Positions 3,569 through 41,211 of a stretch of DNA of 64,000 nucleotides are shown one piece after another. The position numbers were made by a program, and so were the translations under genes. This DNA comes from a virus. Where the stretch lies: positions 11,152 through 75,151 of IMG/VR virus record IMGVR_UViG_3300009320_000011. One strand, given 5' to 3'. Positions within the stretch are counted from its first letter, which is position 1, and the number at the start of each line of letters is the position of its first letter. The notes under the pieces were generated by a model that was not told the DNA's origin, made no database searches, and saw nothing but the letters and a program-made list of their open reading frames with translations.

Positions 3569-5335
3569 GTGAGTAGTGAAAAAATTATTTCTGCTGGTGT
3601 ATTTACCAGAGAAAATGATCAATCTTTTTTACCACAAGGAATAGGAGAAATTGGAGCAGCAATAGTTGGTCCAACCGTAAAAGGTCGAGCATTGGTACCG
3701 ACGTTGGTATCATCTTATGCTGAATACCAGGAATTGTTTGGTGATACATTCGATTCGGGTAGTGACTCATATCAATACTTGACATCAATGTTAGCCGATA
3801 GTTATCTGAAATATGGTAATAATTTATTGGTAACAAAAATATTAGCTGGCAGTTATAGTGCAGCTGATAGTCAAATTCCAAAAACCGGTAGTCTTTGGAC
3901 AGATGCAGAGAATGTAGCTGCATCAGCATCATTTACATTATATACACTGGGTGATGGAGCTATTTTGAATAGTACAAGCTCAATCGGCACAAATAACCTA
4001 TTATCAAGTGGTTCAAAAGATAACTTCCAGTGGGAAGTATCAAACGTAAATAGTACTAAAGGAACATTTACATTATTGATTCGTCGTGGTGATGATAATA
4101 TAAAACGTAAGGTTATTCTTGAACAATGGAATAACTTGAACATGGATCCAAAATCATCCAATTATATTGTAAAAAGAATCGGAGATCAAGTATATACAAT
4201 ACGTGATTCTGGTACGACAACACCATTCTTACAATTAAGTGGATCATACGAGAACAAATCAAAATATGTACGCGTATCAATTAATAGTACATACCAAACA
4301 CCAGATTATCTTGATGAAAACGGGAACGTAAGAAAACCAGAATATAGTGGTTCACTACCAGGACCATCAAGTGGATCATTCGCAAACGGCTCAGACGGTA
4401 ATGTAAAACATCCACAAAATTTCTATGAAAATATCGCAAACGCAAATACACAAGGATACGATCCTAATGTAGAAGGCAGCGGTAGTACAGCATATTTAGA
4501 TGCTTTGAAAATTTTATCAAATCAACTAGAATACGACTTTAACTTACTATTGTTACCGGGAATCATCGACAACCAATCAAACCATGAAGCAGTAGCAACT
4601 AAAGCAGTTGATGTATGTGAAGATCGTGGTGATTGCTTCTGTATACTTGATCCATGTATTTATGCATCATCAATTACAGATGCAACTACTGAAGCGGGGA
4701 CACGTGATACAAACTACTCGGCACACTACTGGCCGTGGGTAAAAATGCCAGATATTCAAACGGGCAAAAATGTGTGGGTACCAGCGTCAATCGCTGCAGC
4801 ACGTGCATTTACATTCAATGATAAAATCGGTTATCCATGGTATGCACCAGCAGGTCTAAATCGTGGAGCATTAGATAATGTAATATCAGCAGAAAGAAAA
4901 CTGACTAGAGGTAATTTAGATGATCTATATGATGCTAATGTTAATCCAGTAGCAACATTCCCAAGAGAAGGTGTAGTAATTTGGGGACAAAAAACACTCC
5001 AAAAGAAAGCATCGGCACTTGATCGAATTAATGTTCGTAGATTGTTAATAGCAGCTAAGAAATTTGTTGCATCAAGTTCGAGATATTTAGTTTTCGACCA
5101 AAATACAACAGCATTAAGAAATAAATTCTTGAATATCTGTAATCCTTATTTCGAGGACATACAGAGTAAACAAGGACTTTATGCATTTCGTTGTGTTATG
5201 GATGAAACAAATAATACATCTGATACTATTGATCGTAACGAATTACATGGAGCAATATATCTGCAACCTTCTAGAACAGCGGAATTTATTTTAATTGATT
5301 TCAACATTTTGCCGACTGGCGCTGTTTTCGCTTAA
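3569..5335 (+). CDS. Tail sheath protein (T4 gp18-like)
   Basis: SAGVFTREND, PWYAPAGLNRG, NPVATFPREGVVIWGQKTLQ..SALDRINVRRL, YLQPSRTAEFI motifs; GTG start after AGGAG. Confidence 0.95.
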   Translation: MSSEKIISAGVFTRENDQSFLPQGIGEIGAAIVGPTVKGRALVPTLVSSYAEYQELFGDTFDSGSDSYQYLTSMLADSYLKYGNNLLVTKILAGSYSAADSQIPKTGSLWTDAENVAASASFTLYTLGDGAILNSTSSIGTNNLLSSGSKDNFQWEVSNVNSTKGTFTLLIRRGDDNIKRKVILEQWNNLNMDPKSSNYIVKRIGDQVYTIRDSGTTTPFLQLSGSYENKSKYVRVSINSTYQTPDYLDENGNVRKPEYSGSLPGPSSGSFANGSDGNVKHPQNFYENIANANTQGYDPNVEGSGSTAYLDALKILSNQLEYDFNLLLLPGIIDNQSNHEAVATKAVDVCEDRGDCFCILDPCIYASSITDATTEAGTRDTNYSAHYWPWVKMPDIQTGKNVWVPASIAAARAFTFNDKIGYPWYAPAGLNRGALDNVISAERKLTRGNLDDLYDANVNPVATFPREGVVIWGQKTLQKKASALDRINVRRLLIAAKKFVASSSRYLVFDQNTTALRNKFLNICNPYFEDIQSKQGLYAFRCVMDETNNTSDTIDRNELHGAIYLQPSRTAEFILIDFNILPTGAVFA

Positions 5336-10797: not shown

Positions 10798-11286
10798 ATG
10801 CCAGACTTGTTAGATCCACAAGAAATAATGTTCACAAGTTTTGAACCGAAAGTAGCTAATAGGTTCATTATGTACGTAGATGGAATACCAGCATATTTAA
10901 TTAACGCAGCAGGCACGCCGAATCCATCATTTGGTGAAATTACACTTGAACATATAAACGTAAAACGCAAATTAAAAGGAAAAGCTGTTTGGGCTGATAT
11001 CACGATATCATTATACGATCCAATTGTACCATCAGCTGCTCAAGCGGTAATGGAGTGGATTCGTCTATCTCATGAAGCAGTAACTGGCCGCGACGGCTAC
11101 TCAGATTTCTATAAAAAGGATTTGACATTTAATGCACTTGGACCAGTGGGCGATAAAGTTGGTCAGTGGACATTAAAAGGAGCTTGGATCAAAGATGCTA
11201 AATTCGGTGATTACGATTGGGCAACTGAAGATGCTATAAAAGTTGAGGTATCAATAGCATATGACTACGCAATATTAGATTACTGA
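10798..11286 (+). CDS. Tail tube protein (T4 gp19-like)
   Basis: FEPKVANRF, KGKAVWADITISLYDPIVPSAAQAVMEW, GRDGYSDFYKKD, WTLKGAW. Confidence 0.9.
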   Translation: MPDLLDPQEIMFTSFEPKVANRFIMYVDGIPAYLINAAGTPNPSFGEITLEHINVKRKLKGKAVWADITISLYDPIVPSAAQAVMEWIRLSHEAVTGRDGYSDFYKKDLTFNALGPVGDKVGQWTLKGAWIKDAKFGDYDWATEDAIKVEVSIAYDYAILDY

Positions 11287-28259: not shown

Positions 28260-29081
28260 ATGCCAATTGACAAAAAAATTATTAAAGAGAAATTAGAAAG
28301 AATTTCACAATCAGCCAGACGTAGAAAAATCGTTTGGAAACCAGACGCAGGAGACCAATATGTACGTATTGTTCCTTATAAATCAAATCCGGGCTTCCCA
28401 TTTATTGAACTATATTTCCATTATGGATTTATGGGTAAGAACATTTTATCACCAACAACATTTGATGAACCAGACCCATTGGTAGAATATGCCAATAAAC
28501 TGAGAGAATCAGGTGATAAAAAGGATTATGAAAATTCTAAAAAGTTATTTCCAAAAATGAGAGTTTATGCTCCGATCCTTGTTCGTGGTGAAGAAGGAGA
28601 AGGTGTTAAATTCTGGGGATTTAATAAAACCATTTATGAAGAATTCTTAGGAATATTAAGTGATCCTGTTTGGGGCGATATTACTGACCCAGCAGAAGGT
28701 AGAGATGTAAAAGTAACATTTATACCAGCAAAGAGTAAGGATACATATCCAAAAACTACTATTGTGGTACAACCAAATATTACACCAATTAGTACAGATA
28801 CGGCGATCATATCTGAAGTGAAGAATCAAGCACCAATATCTGATGCTTATACAACACCAACATATGAGGAAATGGTTGATTTGTTAAATGAATATTTGGA
28901 GGTTACACCTGAATCAGATGAAGAAGAAGAAGACAAACCGAAAGAGCCAACAGAAAAAGGTTATGATGATCTACCATTCGATAGCAAAGAAGTTCCAGAA
29001 AAAAAGGAATCAACCAAGAATGTTAGAGGCATCGATAAACTAAAAAGCGAGTTGGATAACTTATTCCCATCAGAAGAATAA
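28260..29081 (+). CDS. Single-stranded DNA-binding protein (T4 gp32-like)
   Basis: VRIVP, PFIELYFHY, EGVKFWGF, GDITDP.EGRD, acidic tail ending LDNLF. Confidence 0.85.
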   Translation: MPIDKKIIKEKLERISQSARRRKIVWKPDAGDQYVRIVPYKSNPGFPFIELYFHYGFMGKNILSPTTFDEPDPLVEYANKLRESGDKKDYENSKKLFPKMRVYAPILVRGEEGEGVKFWGFNKTIYEEFLGILSDPVWGDITDPAEGRDVKVTFIPAKSKDTYPKTTIVVQPNITPISTDTAIISEVKNQAPISDAYTTPTYEEMVDLLNEYLEVTPESDEEEEDKPKEPTEKGYDDLPFDSKEVPEKKESTKNVRGIDKLKSELDNLFPSEE

Positions 29082-29099: not shown

Positions 29100-30296
29100 A
29101 TGGAAAATAAAAGAAGTGAACTCGCTGAGTTATTAGCGAACACGCTTAATAATAAATTTAAAGCAACCAATTATAAAACAGCCTATTTTCTTGAAGACGA
29201 TCCCGATGCACCCACAAATGTAAATGAGTGGGTGCCAACTGGGTCATCTATACTTGATATTAAAATATCAAATAAACCAAATGGAGGATTTCCCGTTGGT
29301 CGTATAATTGAGCTTCTAGGATTGGAGGCTAGCGGAAAATCTTTACTAGCCGCGCATGCACTAGCCAATACACAGAAACTGGGAGGCATAGCAGTTTATA
29401 TTGAAACTGAAAGTTCAGTAAGCAAAGAATTTCTAAGAGCAATCGGGGTTGATTTGAAGAATTTGGTATATGTACCACTTGATACAATTGAAGACGTATT
29501 TGAAGCGATTGAATCAATTATCGAAAAAATCAGAAAAACAAGTAAAGATGTTCTAGTAACTATAGTAGTTGACTCAGTTGCAGCAACAACTACAAAACTG
29601 GAAATGTCATCTGACTATGATAAAGCCGGATATAATACTGGTAAGTCTATTATCATTTCACAGGCCTTACGTAAAATAACCAATACAATCGCTCGTGAGC
29701 GAGTGTGTTTAATATTCACAAATCAGCTTAGAAAAAACATGAACTCAATGCCTGGAACCGATCCATATACCACAAGTGGTGGTATGGCTCTTGCGTTTCA
29801 TTCATCTGTTAGAATCCGATTGAGAAATATGGGCAAATTAAAAACCAAGGCAGGCGGTGTTGAAGAAGTAGTCGGTATGAAGACTCGAGTTGTTATTACA
29901 AAGAACCGAGTTGGTCCACCGTGGAAGGAATTGGTGTATGATATATATTTCAATTCTGGAATTGATAATTGTGGTGGTTGGTTGACCACAATGAAGGAAA
30001 GAAAACTTGTCAAACAAGCGGGAGCTTGGTACGAGTATACAGATAAAGATACTGGTGAAGTTCTAAAATTTCAATCTAAAACATTTGAATCAGACATATT
30101 ATCTGATGAAACTAGAAAAGAAACAATATATAATGATATATGTAATTCATTGATATCAAAATATAGAGCCAATGAAGATGGTGGTATTGATGATATCAAA
30201 GTTGATGAGAACATATATGATGAAGATATTGATGAACTAACAGACTCGGAAGATGATGCAAAACCATCAGCAAAAATAAAACCAAATGTCAAATAA
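29100..30296 (+). CDS. uvsX: RecA/UvsX recombinase
   Basis: Walker A GLEASGKS, IVVDSVAA, IFTNQLR, TSGG.AL.FHSSVR, KNRVGPP. Confidence 0.95.
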   Translation: MENKRSELAELLANTLNNKFKATNYKTAYFLEDDPDAPTNVNEWVPTGSSILDIKISNKPNGGFPVGRIIELLGLEASGKSLLAAHALANTQKLGGIAVYIETESSVSKEFLRAIGVDLKNLVYVPLDTIEDVFEAIESIIEKIRKTSKDVLVTIVVDSVAATTTKLEMSSDYDKAGYNTGKSIIISQALRKITNTIARERVCLIFTNQLRKNMNSMPGTDPYTTSGGMALAFHSSVRIRLRNMGKLKTKAGGVEEVVGMKTRVVITKNRVGPPWKELVYDIYFNSGIDNCGGWLTTMKERKLVKQAGAWYEYTDKDTGEVLKFQSKTFESDILSDETRKETIYNDICNSLISKYRANEDGGIDDIKVDENIYDEDIDELTDSEDDAKPSAKIKPNVK

Positions 30297-31311
30297 TATA
30301 ATAAATAGGAGTAAAGCAGAGTCCATCCACCAAGACATTAATTCAAAGGTGTTGATAGTGGATGGACTTTAACTCAACTTATATATTCGTTGTTTTGCCG
30401 CTATACCCGCAATGAATGGCGAAGGATATCATGTCGGTGGTATAACAGGATTTTTGAAATCAATTGCGTATGCCATCCGACAATTTAATCCAACAAGATG
30501 TATAATTGTGTTTGATGGAAAAAATGGATCGGTTAGACGCAGGAAATTATACCCAGATTATAAACATAAAAGTACTATTTCATCAAAGTATAATCGGATG
30601 TATAAAAATGATGCTGACGAAGTGGCATCGATGAAAAAACAATTTTCTAGATTACTTGATTATTTAAGTACTTTACCTATATCTATAATATCAATAGATG
30701 GTATTGAAGCTGATGATACAATAGCATATGCATCAACTGAAATACTAAAAGATAGTGATGTAGTTATATTATCAACTGATAGGGATTTCTTACAATTGGT
30801 CGACAAACGAATCAATGTGTGGAGTCCTATTAAAAAGATACTATATAATGTTGATACAATTAAAGAGGAATTTGGTATAAGTCCTAATAATTTTTTATTG
30901 TATAAAATGTTCGTCGGAGATAATTCAGATAATATTCCGGGAATCAAGGGAGTTGGAATTAAAACAATTGAAAAAAGATTTTCATTTCTAAAAGAGGACA
31001 AAGAATATAGCATTAATGATATTATTAATGAATGTGTATTAAATCAAAATACTAAAATCAAAATATATGATTCCGTAATAAACCAAAAAGATCAACTGTT
31101 GTTAAATAAACAACTGATGGATTTGAAAAATTTAGACATATCAGGAAACTCAAAATTATTAATAGGATATAAAATAGAAGAGAAAATAGAAAGCTTAAAT
31201 AAAATAGCATTCGTTGGAATGTTATTAAAGGATGATATTATTAACTTGGTTGGTGATGTACATTTCTGGCTAAAAAACTCATTCGATAAATTGAACTACT
31301 ATGCAAAGTGA
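30286..31311 (+). CDS. 5'-3' exonuclease/flap endonuclease (T4 RNase H-like), interrupted by in-frame TAA at 30370-30372
   Basis: VLIVDGL*LNLYIR, VFDG, EADD, STDRDFLQL, GDNSDNIPGIKGVG; the start at 30286 is in frame with the track ORF at 30412. Confidence 0.85.
30309..30375 (+). promoter_or_regulatory. Hairpin plus codon-STOP-codon element in the exonuclease gene
   Basis: AGAGTCCATCCAC (30318-30330) pairs with GTGGATGGACTTT (30358-30370); CTT TAA CTC. Confidence 0.75.
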
Positions 31312-32695
31312 TAACTTAAAAGAACACGACGATAACTTTCAAGCTAAATTAATAGCTTCTTTTATCACTGATAAGTTTTTCTTTCAACAAGTAATTGATG
31401 TTATTGATCCAAAGCATTTTACTACAGAGATGGACCAGTTTGTCGTTAAATTAATGTTTGATCACTTTTTGGATTATAAACAATTACCGACAGGAACTGT
31501 AATAAAAACTGAAATTGAAAAGATTAAAGATGATGTATTGAGATCATCAATATATGATAGATTAAAAAAAGTTCAATCGGTTATTGACTCGACTGATTTA
31601 CAATATGTCAAGGATGAATATTTGAAATTCTGTCTAACCAAAGAAATCGAATCAGCACTAATAAAATCAGCTGACTTATTACAAGTTGGTGAATTAGATG
31701 GAATAAAAACACTAGTCAGTAATGCATTTAATTCAATATCGGATCGCGATTTTGGTCATAATTACTTAAAAGGATTTGAAGATAGATACGAGAAAGATAT
31801 CCGAAATCCAATACCAACTCCATGGCCGGTTATTAATAAAATAATGGATGGCGGATTATCTGGAGGAGAACTTGGGTGTGTAATCTCACCGCCCGGAAGA
31901 GGAAAAACATGGAGTTTGTCGGCAATTGGTTCTCACGCTCTTAAGATTGGAAAAAATGTATTACATTATACACTTGAAATTAATGAGCATTATGTGGCAA
32001 AACGATATGATTCAATATACAGCGGCGTACCATTTTCAGAACTAAGGTTCAAAAAAGAAGAGGTATTTGATAGTATTAAAAGTTATGATGAATCAACTCT
32101 AATAATAAAAAAATATGGTGGCAAAAAAGCATCAATACAAACTCTTACTGCTCATATTGAAAAATGTATCAATAATGGAATAAAGCCAGATTTGATTGTT
32201 GTAGATTATGCTGATTTACTAAAACCTACAATATATCATAATAAAGAATCACATGCGATATTGCAAGACATATATGTCGACTTATGCGTATTGGCCGAAG
32301 AATATAATATACCGTGCTGGACTGCATCACAAACCGGAAGACATGCTATAAACTTAGATATTATTGAAGATGATTCAATTGCCGGATCATATGGCAAAAT
32401 AATGGAATCATATTTTGTTATGACAGTATCAAGAAATGTAACAGATAAAGAAGGCGGAACAGCAAAAATCTTTGTGGCAAAGAATAGATTTGGTCCAGAT
32501 GGATTAACTTTTCCTTCGAAATTTAATGCAAGCAACGGCCGGATATTGATATATGAAAAAGATAGCATTGAAGGAAAAAAAGTAACGAATGATCTAGACA
32601 ATGATATACCAACAAGAGTTGAATTACGTGATAGGTTCAATGATTTGATGGGCAAAGACAAAAAATTAGATGATAAAAAAATAGATTTAGGATAA
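31301..32695 (+). CDS. Replicative DnaB-like helicase (T4 gp41-like)
   Basis: SPPGRGKT, HYTLE, VVDYADLL, WTASQ, KNRFGPDG. Confidence 0.9.
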   Translation: MQSDNLKEHDDNFQAKLIASFITDKFFFQQVIDVIDPKHFTTEMDQFVVKLMFDHFLDYKQLPTGTVIKTEIEKIKDDVLRSSIYDRLKKVQSVIDSTDLQYVKDEYLKFCLTKEIESALIKSADLLQVGELDGIKTLVSNAFNSISDRDFGHNYLKGFEDRYEKDIRNPIPTPWPVINKIMDGGLSGGELGCVISPPGRGKTWSLSAIGSHALKIGKNVLHYTLEINEHYVAKRYDSIYSGVPFSELRFKKEEVFDSIKSYDESTLIIKKYGGKKASIQTLTAHIEKCINNGIKPDLIVVDYADLLKPTIYHNKESHAILQDIYVDLCVLAEEYNIPCWTASQTGRHAINLDIIEDDSIAGSYGKIMESYFVMTVSRNVTDKEGGTAKIFVAKNRFGPDGLTFPSKFNASNGRILIYEKDSIEGKKVTNDLDNDIPTRVELRDRFNDLMGKDKKLDDKKIDLG

Positions 32696-35843: not shown

Positions 35844-36966
35844 GAGAAATATAAAAAAAATATCGTATTTGGAAAAATATAACAAACTAGTTGAAGAACA
35901 TGGACCAATAGAGGGAATGAATCAATATTACCGATTTATTAGGGGGGTGTCATTAGAAAAATATATATTGAAATATGGTGAAATAGATGGTAAGAAAAAA
36001 TACGACGAATGGAAAGATATACAAAAGAATTCGGGGGTTTCTTTGGATAAAATGATTAAAAAATATGGTGAAATAGATGGTAAGAAAAAATATGAGAATT
36101 GGAAACAAGATACTAGACAAGATTTAAACGCGTTTATAAAAAGATATGGCCGCATTAGTGGTGAAGAAAAATATAATGAATTTAAAAGAAAATCATTGGC
36201 CGCATTATCTAAAGTGGATCAATCAAAAAAGAAGTCAATTAGAAAATTAAATTATTGGATGGATGTTACTAACGGTGATGTTCAACTTGCAAAAAGAAAA
36301 TTATCCGAATATCAAAATACAGCAAGTTTAGATAAATTTATAAATAAATATGGGGATGTAGATGGTAAAAGACGGTATTTGGAAACAAATGCAAAAAGAG
36401 GAACGACACTACGAACAATGATCGAAAAATATGGTGAAGTAGAAGGTAAAGAAAAATACGAGATTTGGAGGAATACCAATAAGCACTTGAAAGAGGATTG
36501 GATAAAAAAATATGGTGAAGTAGACGGTAATAGGAGATATCTAGAATTAACAAAAAAGAAAATAGAAAGAACCAAAAGATATTCTGATATTGGTTTGGAA
36601 TTCTGTGAAGAAATATATAAGAAACTTTGTCATAAATATAGCAATTTTTATTACGGGGAATCAGAATATATGTTTTTTATATTTGAAGATGATGTAAGGA
36701 TAATAGTCCCAGATATGTATATAAAAGATATAAATTTGGTTATCGAATTTTATGGTGATTTCTGGCATAAAAATCCATTAATATATGATATTTCGCAAGA
36801 ATTTGTAAAAGAAACATGGGAACGAGACGAAAAACGGATCTCCATACTAGAAAAGAAAATAAATTCCAATGTAATAATAGTGTGGGAATATGATTATCGC
36901 AAAGATCCGGATGGTGTAATAAATAAAATAGTGGATGAAATAATTATGAATTATGGAAAAGATTAA
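35842..36966 (+). mobile_element. Free-standing Vsr-like homing endonuclease with KYGE.DGK..Y repeats
   Basis: At least six KYGxxxG repeats; VPDMY...IEFYGDFWH..IVWE. Confidence 0.75.
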
Positions 36967-38104
36967 TATAGAGAATATACAATATGAAGAATTAACTGTG
37001 ATTAGTGTAGATGATAATGTTGCTGAAACAATGGATATTGAAGTTGAGAACGATCATTATTATGAACTAGATGGTGGGATATATTCGCACAATACTGTAT
37101 CATTATTAACACAAACCACATCGGGCATTGAACCGTTATTTATGCCATATTATAAAAGAAATAAAAAAATTAATTCAAATGATGTTGATGCAAAGGTACA
37201 TCATACGGATGCTTCGGGTGATAGTTGGGAACAATATAATGTATTTCATCCAAAACTAAAACACTGGATGGAATTGATGGGGCATACTAATATTGAGGAT
37301 AAAATAGATGATGAGTTAAATAATATATTTGAAAAATCTCCATACTTTGGATCAACTGCAAATGACATTAATTGGTTGGATAAAGTTAAAATGCAAGGTG
37401 AAATACAAAAGTGGGTCGACCATTCAATATCAGTAACAGTTAATTTACCAAATACAGCAACAGAAGAATTAATATCAGATATATTTAAGCAGTCTTGGAA
37501 ATCAGGCTGCAAGGGCATTACAGTATATCGCGATGGTTGTCGTGCCGGTGTTTTGATATCAAATAACGATTTAGATAGAAATGGGACTAAAATCCAACAT
37601 AACTCAGCACCAAAACGTCCAAAAATACTTGATTGTGATATACACCAAATAACAGCTCTTGGTAAAAAATGGGTTGTATTGGTTGGTTTATTAGAAGGAG
37701 ATCCATATGAAGTTTTTGCATTCAAACAAGATAAAATAACTATATCACCAAAATTTACAAAAGGATTATTAACACGACATAAGAGCGGCCATTATAAACT
37801 AGAAATACCAGACACAATAGAATTCAATGATATTACAAATTTGTTTGAACGTGATGAGCAAGAATCTCTCACTAGAATTTTATCATGGGGATTACGACAC
37901 GGCGGCGGCGTTAAATATGCAATGGAACAACTGAATAAATCGGGTGAATCAATAGCATCATTTAGTAAAGCTATTTCACGAACATTGAAAAAATATATTA
38001 ATGACGGTGATAAATCTAGTGTGCTATGTCCTGAGTGTGGCGGTGAAATGATATATCAAGAGGGATGCATACGCTGCAAATCTTGTTCGTGGAGTAAATG
38101 TTAA
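36953..38104 (+). CDS. nrdJ: NrdJ fragment 3: intein C-half (36953-37093) plus C-terminal extein with a Zn ribbon
   Basis: TMDIEV..HYY..GIYSHN/TVSLL..SGIEP, VDHSISVTVN, KGITVYRDG, CPECG..EGC..C..C.WSKC. Confidence 0.9.
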   Translation: MEKINIENIQYEELTVISVDDNVAETMDIEVENDHYYELDGGIYSHNTVSLLTQTTSGIEPLFMPYYKRNKKINSNDVDAKVHHTDASGDSWEQYNVFHPKLKHWMELMGHTNIEDKIDDELNNIFEKSPYFGSTANDINWLDKVKMQGEIQKWVDHSISVTVNLPNTATEELISDIFKQSWKSGCKGITVYRDGCRAGVLISNNDLDRNGTKIQHNSAPKRPKILDCDIHQITALGKKWVVLVGLLEGDPYEVFAFKQDKITISPKFTKGLLTRHKSGHYKLEIPDTIEFNDITNLFERDEQESLTRILSWGLRHGGGVKYAMEQLNKSGESIASFSKAISRTLKKYINDGDKSSVLCPECGGEMIYQEGCIRCKSCSWSKC

Positions 38105-38469: not shown

Positions 38470-41211
38470 ATGTACCAAAATCTTTTTTTCGATCGAGAAA
38501 GTTATGTAATGCACGTCTTCGACGATGCTAAAGGATACTATAAATCCAAATACAATTCGTATGCCTATGTATTAGATGCTGGTGGTATGTATAATACACT
38601 GGATGGCAAAACTGTTAAGAGGATACCGGGATATAAGGTTAAAGAATATGATAAAAGTTTATTATATGAATCAGATGTAAAACCAGAAATAAGGTTTTTG
38701 ATCGACAAGTACGGACTATCAGATGAACCATCCAAAAATCATATTACACTATTTTTTGATATCGAAGTCGAATCAGCTGATGGTTTCCCAGACCAAGTAT
38801 TAGCTGAGCAAGAGGTAACTGCAATATCATGTTGGATAAAAGAGATAGATTCATCTATACTACTTCTTCTTGATAAAAGCGACATTATAAAAGATGTAAA
38901 TAAGAAAAATGTTAAAATTATATCATTCAAAGATGAAGTATCTTTATTGGATGAATTTATTAATATATTACACAAAATCAAACCAACGATACTAACTGGT
39001 TGGAATATAAATAACTTTGATATACCATATCTATATAATAGGTATACCAATATATTTGGTGAAGATGTAGCAAAACAATTAAGTCCAATTAACATAGTTA
39101 AAGAGGATCATTATAACGACGGTGAATATAAAATAGCTGGTGTAAATTGTTTAGACTATTTATTATTATATAAGAAATTCGAATCAAACCAGAAACAAGC
39201 ATATTCACTTGATTTTATTGGTGAATTGGAGATAGGACTTGGCAAGGTAAAATATGACAAATCATTGGATGATCTATACAATACAGACATCGAAGGATTT
39301 ATTGAGTATTGTTTTCGTGATGTTGAAATTGTAAAACAACTTGATGAAAAATTAAACCATATTGAACTGACTAAGATGGTATGTCATAAAGGACACGTAC
39401 CATACGAAGATATATTTATGTCGTCTAGATATTTAGAAGGAGCGATATTAACGTATTTGAAAAATAATGAAATAGTATCACCCAATAAAAAACCAGAAAT
39501 CAAACTTGTATTATCTCGAGATCATAACTTAGATGAATCAAAATTATATGTTAGAAGCATACCAAAAGAAACACCATTAAGTGGTATGTTAGGCATAAAG
39601 AAATCAAAATCCTCATTTGTATATGTCGACTATAAAGAATATAAGGGGAACTATTTCATATTAAAGGAACCACTAAAAGAATATATAGATAAAACTTATA
39701 AGGTATCGTTCGAGTTTACAGGAGCTAGAGTTAAACCACCAAAACCAGGTAGGTTTAAGTGGATGTTTGATTTAGACTTAAAATCAATGTATCCGTTTTC
39801 AATTATTACATTGAATATATCTCCAGAAACAAAAAAAGGCAAAGTATTTGAATTTGACCCATATGAGTTTTATAATAATAAAGACGCAAATATAAGAGTC
39901 ATATTTGACTCAGATGAATTATTGATTACGTATTCTGAATTAAGGAAATTGTTGATAAAATATAATTGTTCTATATCATCCAATGGAATAATTTATTCAC
40001 TTGAAAAACGTGGTTTGATACCAAATATACTTGAATTGTGGTCTTTTGAGCGCGATGATGTAAAGGAAAAACGCGATGAACATAAAGAAGGATCAAAGAA
40101 ATATCAGTATTTCGATAGACTCCAGGAAAGGCAAAAGGTTTTGCTTAACTCAATTTATGGGTGTCTTGGTCTGCAATCATTTCGTTGGTATGATTTAGAT
40201 AATGCGGAAGCAACAACGTCGAGTGGAAGGACATTAATAACATATTCAGAAAAAGTTGCAAATTTATTTTATAATAAAGAGTTAAATATCGATGTAAGTG
40301 CATCAAAAAATAATCAAGTAGATTATTGTGCTTACATCGATACGTAGATGGATTCATTATTCTTTTCAACTTTACCAATTATTGAAAAAAGATATCCAAC
40401 TGAGGATTATGAAAATGATTCTTTTATGATTAATAAAACACTTGAAATCACTAGAGAAATACAAAACTTTATTAATGATTCGTATAAAAATTATTCAAAT
40501 GGATTTCATTGTGTTAAAAATCATAGCTACAAAATTAAGCAAGAACTTGTAGCAAAATCCGGATTTTGGTTAGATGTAAAGAAACGATATGCATTACTAA
40601 TAGTTGATAAAGAGGGCGTGAGACTTGAAAAACCAAAATTAGATGTAAAGGGATTGGATACTGTACGTAGTGATTTTCCAAATAGTATGCGTGAGTTTAT
40701 GAAGGAAACATTAATGCATATATTAGAGTTTAAGTCAAAAGAGTTTTTGGATAAACATATTGAGCAATTCAAAGAAAAAATAAATTCAATTGAAGTAAAA
40801 GATATCGCTCGACCATCTTCAGTAAATGGTATTGGTAAGTATTCTGGAAGAAAAACACCAGGAGGATTGACTGAAATTAAAAAAGGAGCTCAATCACATA
40901 TAAAAGGATGTATATATTATAATGATTTGATTAATATATTTGATCAATCAAAAGATTACGAGCACATCAGGAATAAAGATAAAATTAAGAGTGTTTACTT
41001 GAAAGACAATCCATATCAATTTGAATCTTTATCTTATCGGGGATATGACGATCCGCCAGAAATTATTGAATTTATTGAAAAATATATAGACCGAAATAAA
41101 ATCTTTGAATTATTGCTGGTAAATAAATTAAATTCATTCTATAAAGCTTTGGGCTGGGGCGAGATTAATGCGTTAATAAATAAAAACATAAATAAATTTT
41201 TTGATTTTTAG
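38470..41211 (+). CDS. Family B DNA polymerase (T4 gp43-like), interrupted by TAG ATG inside motif C
   Basis: FFDIEV, TGWNI..FDIPY, DLKSMYP, KVLLNSIYG, YIDT*MDS, KKRYA, VKG; both track ORFs are in the same frame. Confidence 0.9.
40287..40353 (+). promoter_or_regulatory. Hairpin plus codon-STOP-codon element in PolB
   Basis: TATCGATGTAAGTGCA (40287-40302) pairs with TGTGCTTACATCGATA (40327-40342); inner ATAATC/GATTAT stem; ACG TAG ATG. Confidence 0.75.

Follow-up and report, generated by a model that had tools for sequence, protein, structure and literature searches.

Synthetic stop-hops in Escherichia coli place matched codons around a stop codon, so that nine nucleotides yield one amino acid (Weiss, Dunn, Atkins and Gesteland 1987). 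According to a 2016 review of recoding, stop-hopping between matched codons had been shown only in such constructs, natural occurrences were not known and short natural counterparts of the T4 gene 60 bypass had 'long been presumed' (PMC5009743). Here, we describe a candidate natural case in a 64,000-nucleotide stretch of viral DNA, which as a whole is called the window below and spans positions 11,152 to 75,151 of the 75-kb IMG/VR viral contig IMGVR_UViG_3300009320_000011 (CheckV completeness, 38%). Its 5′–3′ exonuclease gene, coding for a flap endonuclease (FEN), is interrupted in the first catalytic motif by an in-frame stop codon. We consider it reasonably probable that the gene encodes a working enzyme and that its mRNA contains a 6-nt non-coding gap, which ribosomes would skip from CUU to CUC by a programmed short translational bypass, or stop-hop. 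The site shares with the synthetic constructs, the original of which was reportedly a leucine CUU-UAG-CUA hop, a stop flanked by matched codons (CUU-UAA-CUC). The constructs are engineered, unstimulated and of low efficiency, whereas the FEN arrangement is natural, interrupts a catalytic motif, is shared by at least 67 alleles and always stands behind a co-varying hairpin.

For T4 gene 60, pairing of the exiting mRNA in 5′ and extended stem-loops has been proposed to drive bypassing forward (bioRxiv 10.1101/2024.12.09.627546). Our comparison with gene 60 and the MobA cassettes draws on Huang 1988, Manning and Atkins (bioRxiv 10.1101/2022.08.31.505936) and Wills et al. (bioRxiv 10.1101/2024.12.09.627546). 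Both systems have a stop directly after the take-off codon, matched take-off and landing codons, a resumption that does not depend on frame and mRNA pairing 5′ of the ribosome as a proposed driver; both are scattered over a family of phage replication genes, often beside a homing endonuclease. They differ in gap length (5–11 nt in FEN versus 50 nt in gene 60, or 20 nt in one clade), and the 6-nt gap leaves no room for a take-off stem-loop in the A site. Furthermore, the 3′ arm of the FEN hairpin includes the take-off codon, whereas in gene 60 the 5′ stem-loop stops 9 nt short of that codon, and the gene concerned is a FEN rather than a topoisomerase, without an endonuclease gene beside it in the window. 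A nascent-peptide signal was not seen in FEN, although no dedicated analysis was made; the nascent chain at the stop is 28 aa long, and its conserved NS[RK]VLIVDGL also occurs in intact alleles. Because of the different gene, the missing A-site stem-loop, the lack of a visible nascent-peptide signal and the different hairpin geometry, the FEN arrangement lies outside the gene 60 cassette family, while resembling both the synthetic stop-hops and a miniature gene 60 bypass.

Two further recoding systems invite comparison. The +1 frameshift of prfB (encoding RF2) at CUU UGA C likewise combines a shifty stop, peptidyl-tRNA-Leu on CUU, an A-site stop followed by C and an upstream stimulator. The window, in contrast, needs no frame change, its stimulator would be a hairpin instead of Shine–Dalgarno pairing, and a +1 shift would add two to three unconserved residues in FEN alleles with 7-nt and 10-nt gaps; a prfB-type shift could also decode one relative, L004 (CUU UAA G, 10-nt gap). 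The byp elements of Magnusiomyces are 27–55 nt long, GC-rich and belong to a mitochondrial translation system. They too are short mobile non-coding inserts in essential genes that are skipped between matched codons (81 instances; PMC5009743), but FEN gaps measure only 5–11 nt, reside in phage genes and follow a coding hairpin. Our literature search found no report of a natural stop-hop in FEN genes.

Anatomy of the interrupted FEN gene

The FEN gene occupies 30286–31311 on the + strand in a single frame, with TAA at 30370–30372 as its sole internal stop (context GGA CTT TAA CTC AAC). As an earlier reading of the DNA letters (the sequence-only reading) had claimed, the ATG at 30286 opens a 28-codon open reading frame (ORF; MSNNIINRSKAESIHQDINSKVLIVDGL) that carries VLIVDG, is closed by the TAA and shares its frame with the 299-codon ORF starting at ATG 30412. 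This N-part (30286–30369) runs to the proposed take-off codon CTT (Leu28, 30367–30369) and supplies the first strand and first catalytic Asp (VLIVDGL), aligning with residues 12–20 of Taq polymerase (VLLVDG). The first metal-binding Asp thereby sits upstream of the TAA and would share a chain with the remainder of the domain only if the gap were bypassed or read through. The C-part (30376–31311) begins with the Asn codon AAC (30376–30378), at which translation would resume, followed by 310 codons and the stop TGA. PF02739 is matched from its first position (1–164) only with both pieces joined, while the 299-aa ORF alone enters the profile at position 24. The read-through translation exceeds the cut-offs of both domain profiles (PF02739, 103 bits versus 34.3; PF01367, 40.5 bits versus 40). 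The sequence-only reading was also right that no ATG follows the stop before 30412; neither is there an in-frame GTG or TTG, and a start at 30412 would lose profile positions 1–23.

Comparison with close relatives defined the gap. Protein P0001, encoded by locus L002, is the closest relative (93% identity) and reads ...ESIHQDINSKVLIVDGLNLYIRCF, which equals the window sequence minus TAA CTC (DGLNLYIR). Both L002 and the 84% identical L003 are intact without the 6 nt (DGLN(L/T)(Y/F)IR), and HMMER alignments to Taq and M. smegmatis DNA polymerase I show a two-residue gap opposite 'xL'. Together, these data indicate that the window holds six extra bases (30370–30375), comprising TAA and the proposed landing codon CTC (30373–30375), which separate the codons for Leu and Asn in the first catalytic motif. 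The intact L002 is the sister of the window allele in the tree (support 97). In L004 (84% identity), the same boundary is broken by 10 nt, CTT-TAAGAAAATA-AAC, which shifts the sequence behind it into the +1 frame; its hairpin segment nevertheless agrees with that of the window at 57 of 64 bases despite the different gap lengths. An 84% relative was called from an internal Met as a 299-aa protein (P0004); P0002 was likewise called from the internal Met, although its DNA, L003, is intact.

L003 has a 240-aa ORF without a significant Pfam family between recA and FEN (L003:2217-2939), and its FEN N-terminus is short and divergent (MNLNDKVLVVDG) and lacks a hairpin; the extra ORF and the gap thus do not go together in this clade. 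In L004, recA (L004:1301-2878, 525 aa) and dnaB (L004:3890-5725, 611 aa) exceed their window counterparts in length and give weak Hint/intein-domain matches, so that, counting the 10-nt FEN gap, three neighboring replication genes carry insertions.

Immediately upstream of the gap, a 13-bp hairpin (30318–30330 paired with 30358–30370) ends at the stop, substantiating the stem noted in the sequence-only reading. Its minimum free energy (MFE) is −25.0 kcal/mol versus −10.1 ± 2.6 for shuffled sequences (z −5.8), none of 200 shuffles being as stable. The 5′ arm AGAGTCCATCCAC (30318–30330) lies in the reading frame and reverse-complements the codons for V-D-G-L; peptides encoded by this arm include E-S-I-H, as in the window, and P-A-V-D. 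The 3′ arm GTGGATGGACTTT (30358–30370) consists of the codons for Val-Asp-Gly-Leu and the initial base of the stop, and the 27-nt loop contains an inner 6-bp helix in the MFE structure (30334–30353, with 30334–30339 pairing with 30348–30353). No intrinsic terminator is predicted at the hairpin. Folding of 30295–30410 extends the structure across the gap, pairing GUAAAGCA (30311–30318) with UGUUUUGC (30391–30398) at an MFE of −33.8 kcal/mol. The additional pairing of GAGT (30309–30312) with ACTC (30372–30375) suggested by the sequence-only reading is absent from this fold; the two tetramers exist, but a 4-nt complement is trivial, and it is not conserved.

The hairpin was present, with co-variation between its arms, in all 65 interrupted alleles analyzed. 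For the 76 nt ending at the stop, MFE averaged −27.5 ± 3.7 kcal/mol in these alleles versus −12.6 ± 6.5 in 107 intact loci. Median values were −27.3 versus −11.2 for 92 distinct intact alleles (Mann–Whitney p = 5e-22, with alleles lacking phylogenetic independence). The core, which extends from Val position 3 to Leu position 1, is paired in 98–100% of alleles (80% at Leu position 1). This core includes the third-codon positions of Val, Asp and Gly, paired in 98–100% with all four pair types represented. Both the Asp and Gly wobble positions are fully compensated, Gly position 3 forming T-A (7), G-C (35), A-T (13) and C-G (3) pairs in addition to wobbles. In the intact sister L002, two synonymous changes disrupt the stem (z −0.25). 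Strong hairpins ending at the Leu codon are also found in the intact alleles L023, L059, L020, L021, L033, L005, L092 and L100 (−40 kcal/mol in L023), several of which adjoin interrupted clades on the tree and may have lost the gap precisely or be precursors.

Recurrence and selection of the gap

We compiled a first family set of 34 metagenome and 80 IMG/VR loci, followed by two DNA-pattern scans of IMG/VR. Further interrupted loci in the first set were L016 (CTT-TAGCTC-AAC), L008 (CTA-TAGAAAA-AAC) and L064 and L074 (both CTT-TGACTA-AAT). Altogether, IMG/VR and JGI metagenomes yielded 79 FEN loci with at least 67 distinct alleles, all broken at one codon boundary, and skipping the gap restores DGL-N in every allele. 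Gaps measured 6 nt in 56 distinct alleles, 7 nt in eight and 5, 10 and 11 nt in one each; an 8-nt allele and one more 7-nt allele appeared in the scan but failed the stricter FEN filter and are outside these counts. An in-frame stop opens the gap in all 67 alleles (TAG, 35; TGA, 23; TAA, 9), early scans having demanded a stop, and the base after it is C in 61. The take-off codon is CTN in every allele, as the search pattern demanded. The landing triplet, by contrast, was unconstrained by the scan, yet CTN follows the stop in 53 of the 56 six-base gaps, so that here, as in the window, codons readable by one tRNA flank the stop. All four synonymous forms occur at the landing position, and in 31 of the CTN-landing six-base alleles, the landing codon differs from the allele's own take-off codon.

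A separate IMG/VR scan left the middle codon free (D-G-L-NNN-CTN-N-x-[FY]-I). All 60 matches were stop-bearing loci that had already been found, and none had a sense codon, indicating that the stop is kept and that a two-residue insertion is absent from the family; such an insertion was likewise found in none of ~107 intact loci. Since gap lengths of 5, 7, 8, 10 and 11 nt occur, only a skip that is independent of frame would repair these alleles. A conserved restart codon after the gap was not detected: the first in-frame start is scattered from codon 1 to codon 57, and within 60 codons, 34 of 67 alleles lack an ATG, while 11 of 67 lack any ATG, GTG or TTG.

The coding sequence around the gap appears maintained. 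Among 56 fully covered interrupted alleles, none carried a second lesion in the C-part, and in all 56 an unbroken ORF of 306–326 aa follows the Asn codon; all but two alleles have an ATG-led N-part of 22–48 codons. The ratio of nonsynonymous to synonymous substitution rates (dN/dS) in C-parts of interrupted alleles is 0.06–0.23. A FastTree phylogeny built from 59 interrupted and 96 intact C-parts required at least 12 changes between interrupted and intact, counting well-supported branches only, and up to 18, and several all-interrupted clades have long internal branches. The interrupted alleles fall into 28 hairpin families with <85% identity. ORFs directly upstream of interrupted FEN genes bear homing-endonuclease hallmarks in ~14–16 of 35 sampled cases (~40%; NUMOD3, 11; HNH or HNH_5, 2–3; REase_MTES_1575, 2).

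Proposed mechanism and competing explanations

In the proposed stop-hop, a ribosome would read from Met1 to Leu28 and then hold UAA in its A site with C as the next base. A UAA followed by C is a poor termination context, C after the stop being leaky. Peptidyl-tRNA-Leu would release CUU (30367–30369), the mRNA would slide by 6 nt and the same tRNA would re-pair with CUC (30373–30375). Decoding would then restart at AAC (30376), producing a 339-aa protein with the canonical motif VLIVDGLNLYIR. At take-off, the 3′ arm of the hairpin would lie within the ribosome, roughly in the P site, E site and exit channel, and as this arm leaves the mRNA exit, the hairpin could re-zip, pulling the mRNA forward and blocking a back-slip. 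The sequence data establish the anatomy of the site, its recurrence and the pattern of selection on it; that ribosomes hop, how efficiently they do so and how the hairpin contributes are inferred. A translational mechanism is favored because the A-site stop is conserved, a matching Leu codon follows it, gap lengths fall into all three frames and sense-codon variants are lacking. A Leu-to-Leu hop helped by the stem and without re-initiation had already been proposed in the sequence-only reading. That proposal gains comparative support from the CTN landing codons, the use of all three stops, the gap lengths other than 6 nt and the absence of a conserved start.

Several observations weigh against the stop-hop. 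Unstimulated synthetic stop-hops are inefficient (~1%), and a hairpin whose 3′ arm is inside the ribosome at take-off has a geometry unlike that of the gene 60 5′ stem-loop. An equally strong hairpin in 8 of 92 intact alleles implies that the structure is not specific to the gap but is older or wider than the gap or outlives its loss. Gaps of 5, 7, 8 and 10 nt mostly lack a matching in-frame landing triplet (GTC, AAC, AAA, CCA, GTG, ACG and ATA are found instead), so that the matched-codon rule is strict only for 6-nt gaps, although it holds in the one 11-nt gap. Lastly, the N-part has diverged far less at synonymous sites than the C-part (for example, 0.07 versus >2.7), which fits RNA constraint but also a recent horizontal spread of an N-part cassette. 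A cassette of N-part, hairpin and gap may indeed spread horizontally; part of the purifying selection behind the low C-part dN/dS would then be older than the gap.

The main rival explanation, which we regard as unlikely, is an inactive gene: a selfish homing-endonuclease cassette or a mutation would have put a stop-bearing insert into the catalytic motif, with the loss of FEN being tolerated or recent. The endonuclease hallmarks upstream, the repeated state changes on the tree and the low N-part divergence, which would fit a recent spread, all agree with this scenario, and a second FEN could be encoded elsewhere because the contig is only 38% complete. A young and dead gene is nevertheless disfavored since the 28 divergent hairpin families all keep the stop and nearly all keep CTN. 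In a dead gene, variants with a sense codon would be neutral, yet none occurs among the 60 loci, and the unbroken C-parts, the compensatory changes in the hairpin and the long internal branches of all-interrupted clades point in the same direction, as does the window itself, where RecA abuts FEN without an intervening endonuclease gene. Stop-codon read-through, by which a near-cognate tRNA would decode UAA to give an active 341-aa FEN with two extra residues (DGL-x-L-N), seems improbable. Both window ORFs are in frame, C after the stop is leaky, and selection could in principle act on the conserved Leu behind the stop as an amino acid. Read-through could not, however, repair gaps of 5, 7, 8, 10 or 11 nt, including that of L004 with its largely shared hairpin. 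A functional insertion would also predict fitter and common stop-to-sense mutants, which the free-codon scan did not return, and it has no counterpart among the intact loci; moreover, all three stops are used.

Two further scenarios appear still less probable. A split or truncated enzyme, to which we give little credence, would end at the TAA and restart at ATG 30412 or a non-canonical codon, with the 299-aa protein acting alone or together with the 28-aa peptide. The Met homologous to that ATG is used by gene callers in relatives (P0004 and P0002), and Bacteroidota, the likely hosts, need no Shine–Dalgarno sequence. The shorter protein would, however, lack the profile positions that include the strand and Asp aligned with Taq VLLVDG, the restart codon is not conserved across alleles, and the N-part stays open and keeps VLIVDGL. 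We rate as slightly more remote a removal of the six bases before translation through RNA excision with the 5′ arm as guide, transcriptional skipping at the hairpin or DNA heterogeneity. The sequence-only reading had kept an internal-guide excision open, and the 5′ arm GAGTCCATCCAC does perfectly complement the gap-deleted GTGGATGGACTC. This idea found no comparative backing, as gap deletion does not lengthen the stem over 54 alleles (0.06 versus 0.04 extra pairs). An excised segment would need neither a stop as its first triplet nor a matching Leu codon, the hairpin does not resemble a terminator, and a single read-level unitig contains the gap. To our knowledge, no bacterial mechanism excises 5–11 nt.

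Other candidate explanations were rejected. For the window, a +1 frameshift fails because the +1 frame closes at a TGA after 15 codons and the downstream ORF lies in frame 0, although such a shift is possible for L004. Stop reassignment or a suppressor tRNA is contradicted by + strand ORFs of ≥150 aa, which end in TAA (24), TGA (15) and TAG (6), and by the occurrence of all three stops at the FEN site. No tRNA gene is present in the window.

If the stop-hop is real, it would be a natural and recurrent example inside the catalytic motif of a replication nuclease. The dozens of alleles that vary naturally in gap length, stop, landing codon and hairpin would then form a ready-made mutational series, and the exiting-mRNA-pairing model of bypass could be tested directly on a minimal 6-nt system. 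Annotation pipelines would miscall such genes as split or truncated, as exemplified by the 299-aa P0004. A functional hop would also bear on how homing-endonuclease cassettes invade essential genes without killing them.

A second interrupted replication gene and genome context

The window contains another replication enzyme gene with a hairpin followed by a stop. The family-B DNA polymerase (PolB) is split in catalytic motif C by six extra bases at 40345–40350 (...YIDT-TAG-ATG-DSLF), giving ORFs at 38470–40347 and 40348–41211. A hairpin at 40287–40342 (−23.2 kcal/mol, z −6.7) stops 2 nt short of the TAG. All 61 PolB relatives in IMG/VR are intact without the six bases (SDTDS(L/A/C)(F/Y)), and no second PolB interrupted in motif C turned up among these relatives or with a restrictive DNA pattern. 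The stop is TAG here and TAA at the FEN site of the same genome, and the flanking codons, ACG and ATG, are unmatched. The architecture matches that of the FEN site, but a genuinely split polymerase is equally possible, and it is a serious alternative because the ATG directly after the stop could restart translation. A window-wide scan for hairpin-stop-continuation sites returned only FEN and PolB; a match at 3721 was discarded as an alternative frame of a 588-aa ORF.

Tentatively, FEN (30370–30375) and PolB motif C (40345–40350) could exemplify one general device in at least two replication enzymes, in which a coding hairpin ends at the take-off codon and is followed by a stop and a few non-coding bases; we hold this extension to be doubtful. 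Re-zipping of the hairpin would have to suffice for a short bypass even without a perfectly matched landing codon, as from ACG to AUG in PolB and onto the unmatched triplets of 7-, 8- and 10-nt FEN gaps. Such gaps might then persist by blunting the target sites of homing endonucleases or by tuning enzyme dosage.

FEN is a single-copy gene in the 75-kb record and belongs to a + strand replication module of gp32-like single-stranded DNA-binding protein (SSB; 28260–29081), RecA/UvsX (29100–30296), FEN (30286–31311) and DnaB-like helicase (31301–32695). The RecA stop at 30294–30296 overlaps the FEN start, leaving no endonuclease ORF between the two genes. Downstream, the match of a 383-aa ORF (36953–38104) to the ribonucleotide-reductase barrel is confined to the C-terminal third (profile positions 391–523), and a TSCPD domain is matched weakly. 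The rest of the reductase was not located, and the gene may be split or unusual.

An initial scan of viral contigs with the window's own FEN protein gave no relative, and DNA-based searches then found relatives; blastn of the FEN region against cultured phages gave no match. By tblastn, cultured relatives were identified in Flavobacterium phages (vB_FspM_immuto) and Microcystis phage Mel-JY01, together with the uncultured LR756508. All of these are intact (DG(L/M)N or DSMN), and no gap-bearing isolate was found among the cultured relatives. A 151-nt unitig from the marine metagenome run X2 (depth ~2.7) is identical to 30305–30455 including the TAA, which gives weak support because this run may be the source sample. 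Sequencing runs listed for the sequence comprised two small-share marine DNA runs and no RNA run; the RNA run X3 returned nothing, which does not bear on expression. The SSB–RecA–FEN–DnaB order is common to Flavobacterium phages of the genus Immutovirus and Mel-JY01, with FEN identities of 40–43% (L308, MW353177.1; L309, PP395634.1), and the contig of the closest relative was binned as Bacteroidetes. On the basis of this shared gene order and label, the host of the window phage is probably a marine member of the Bacteroidota.

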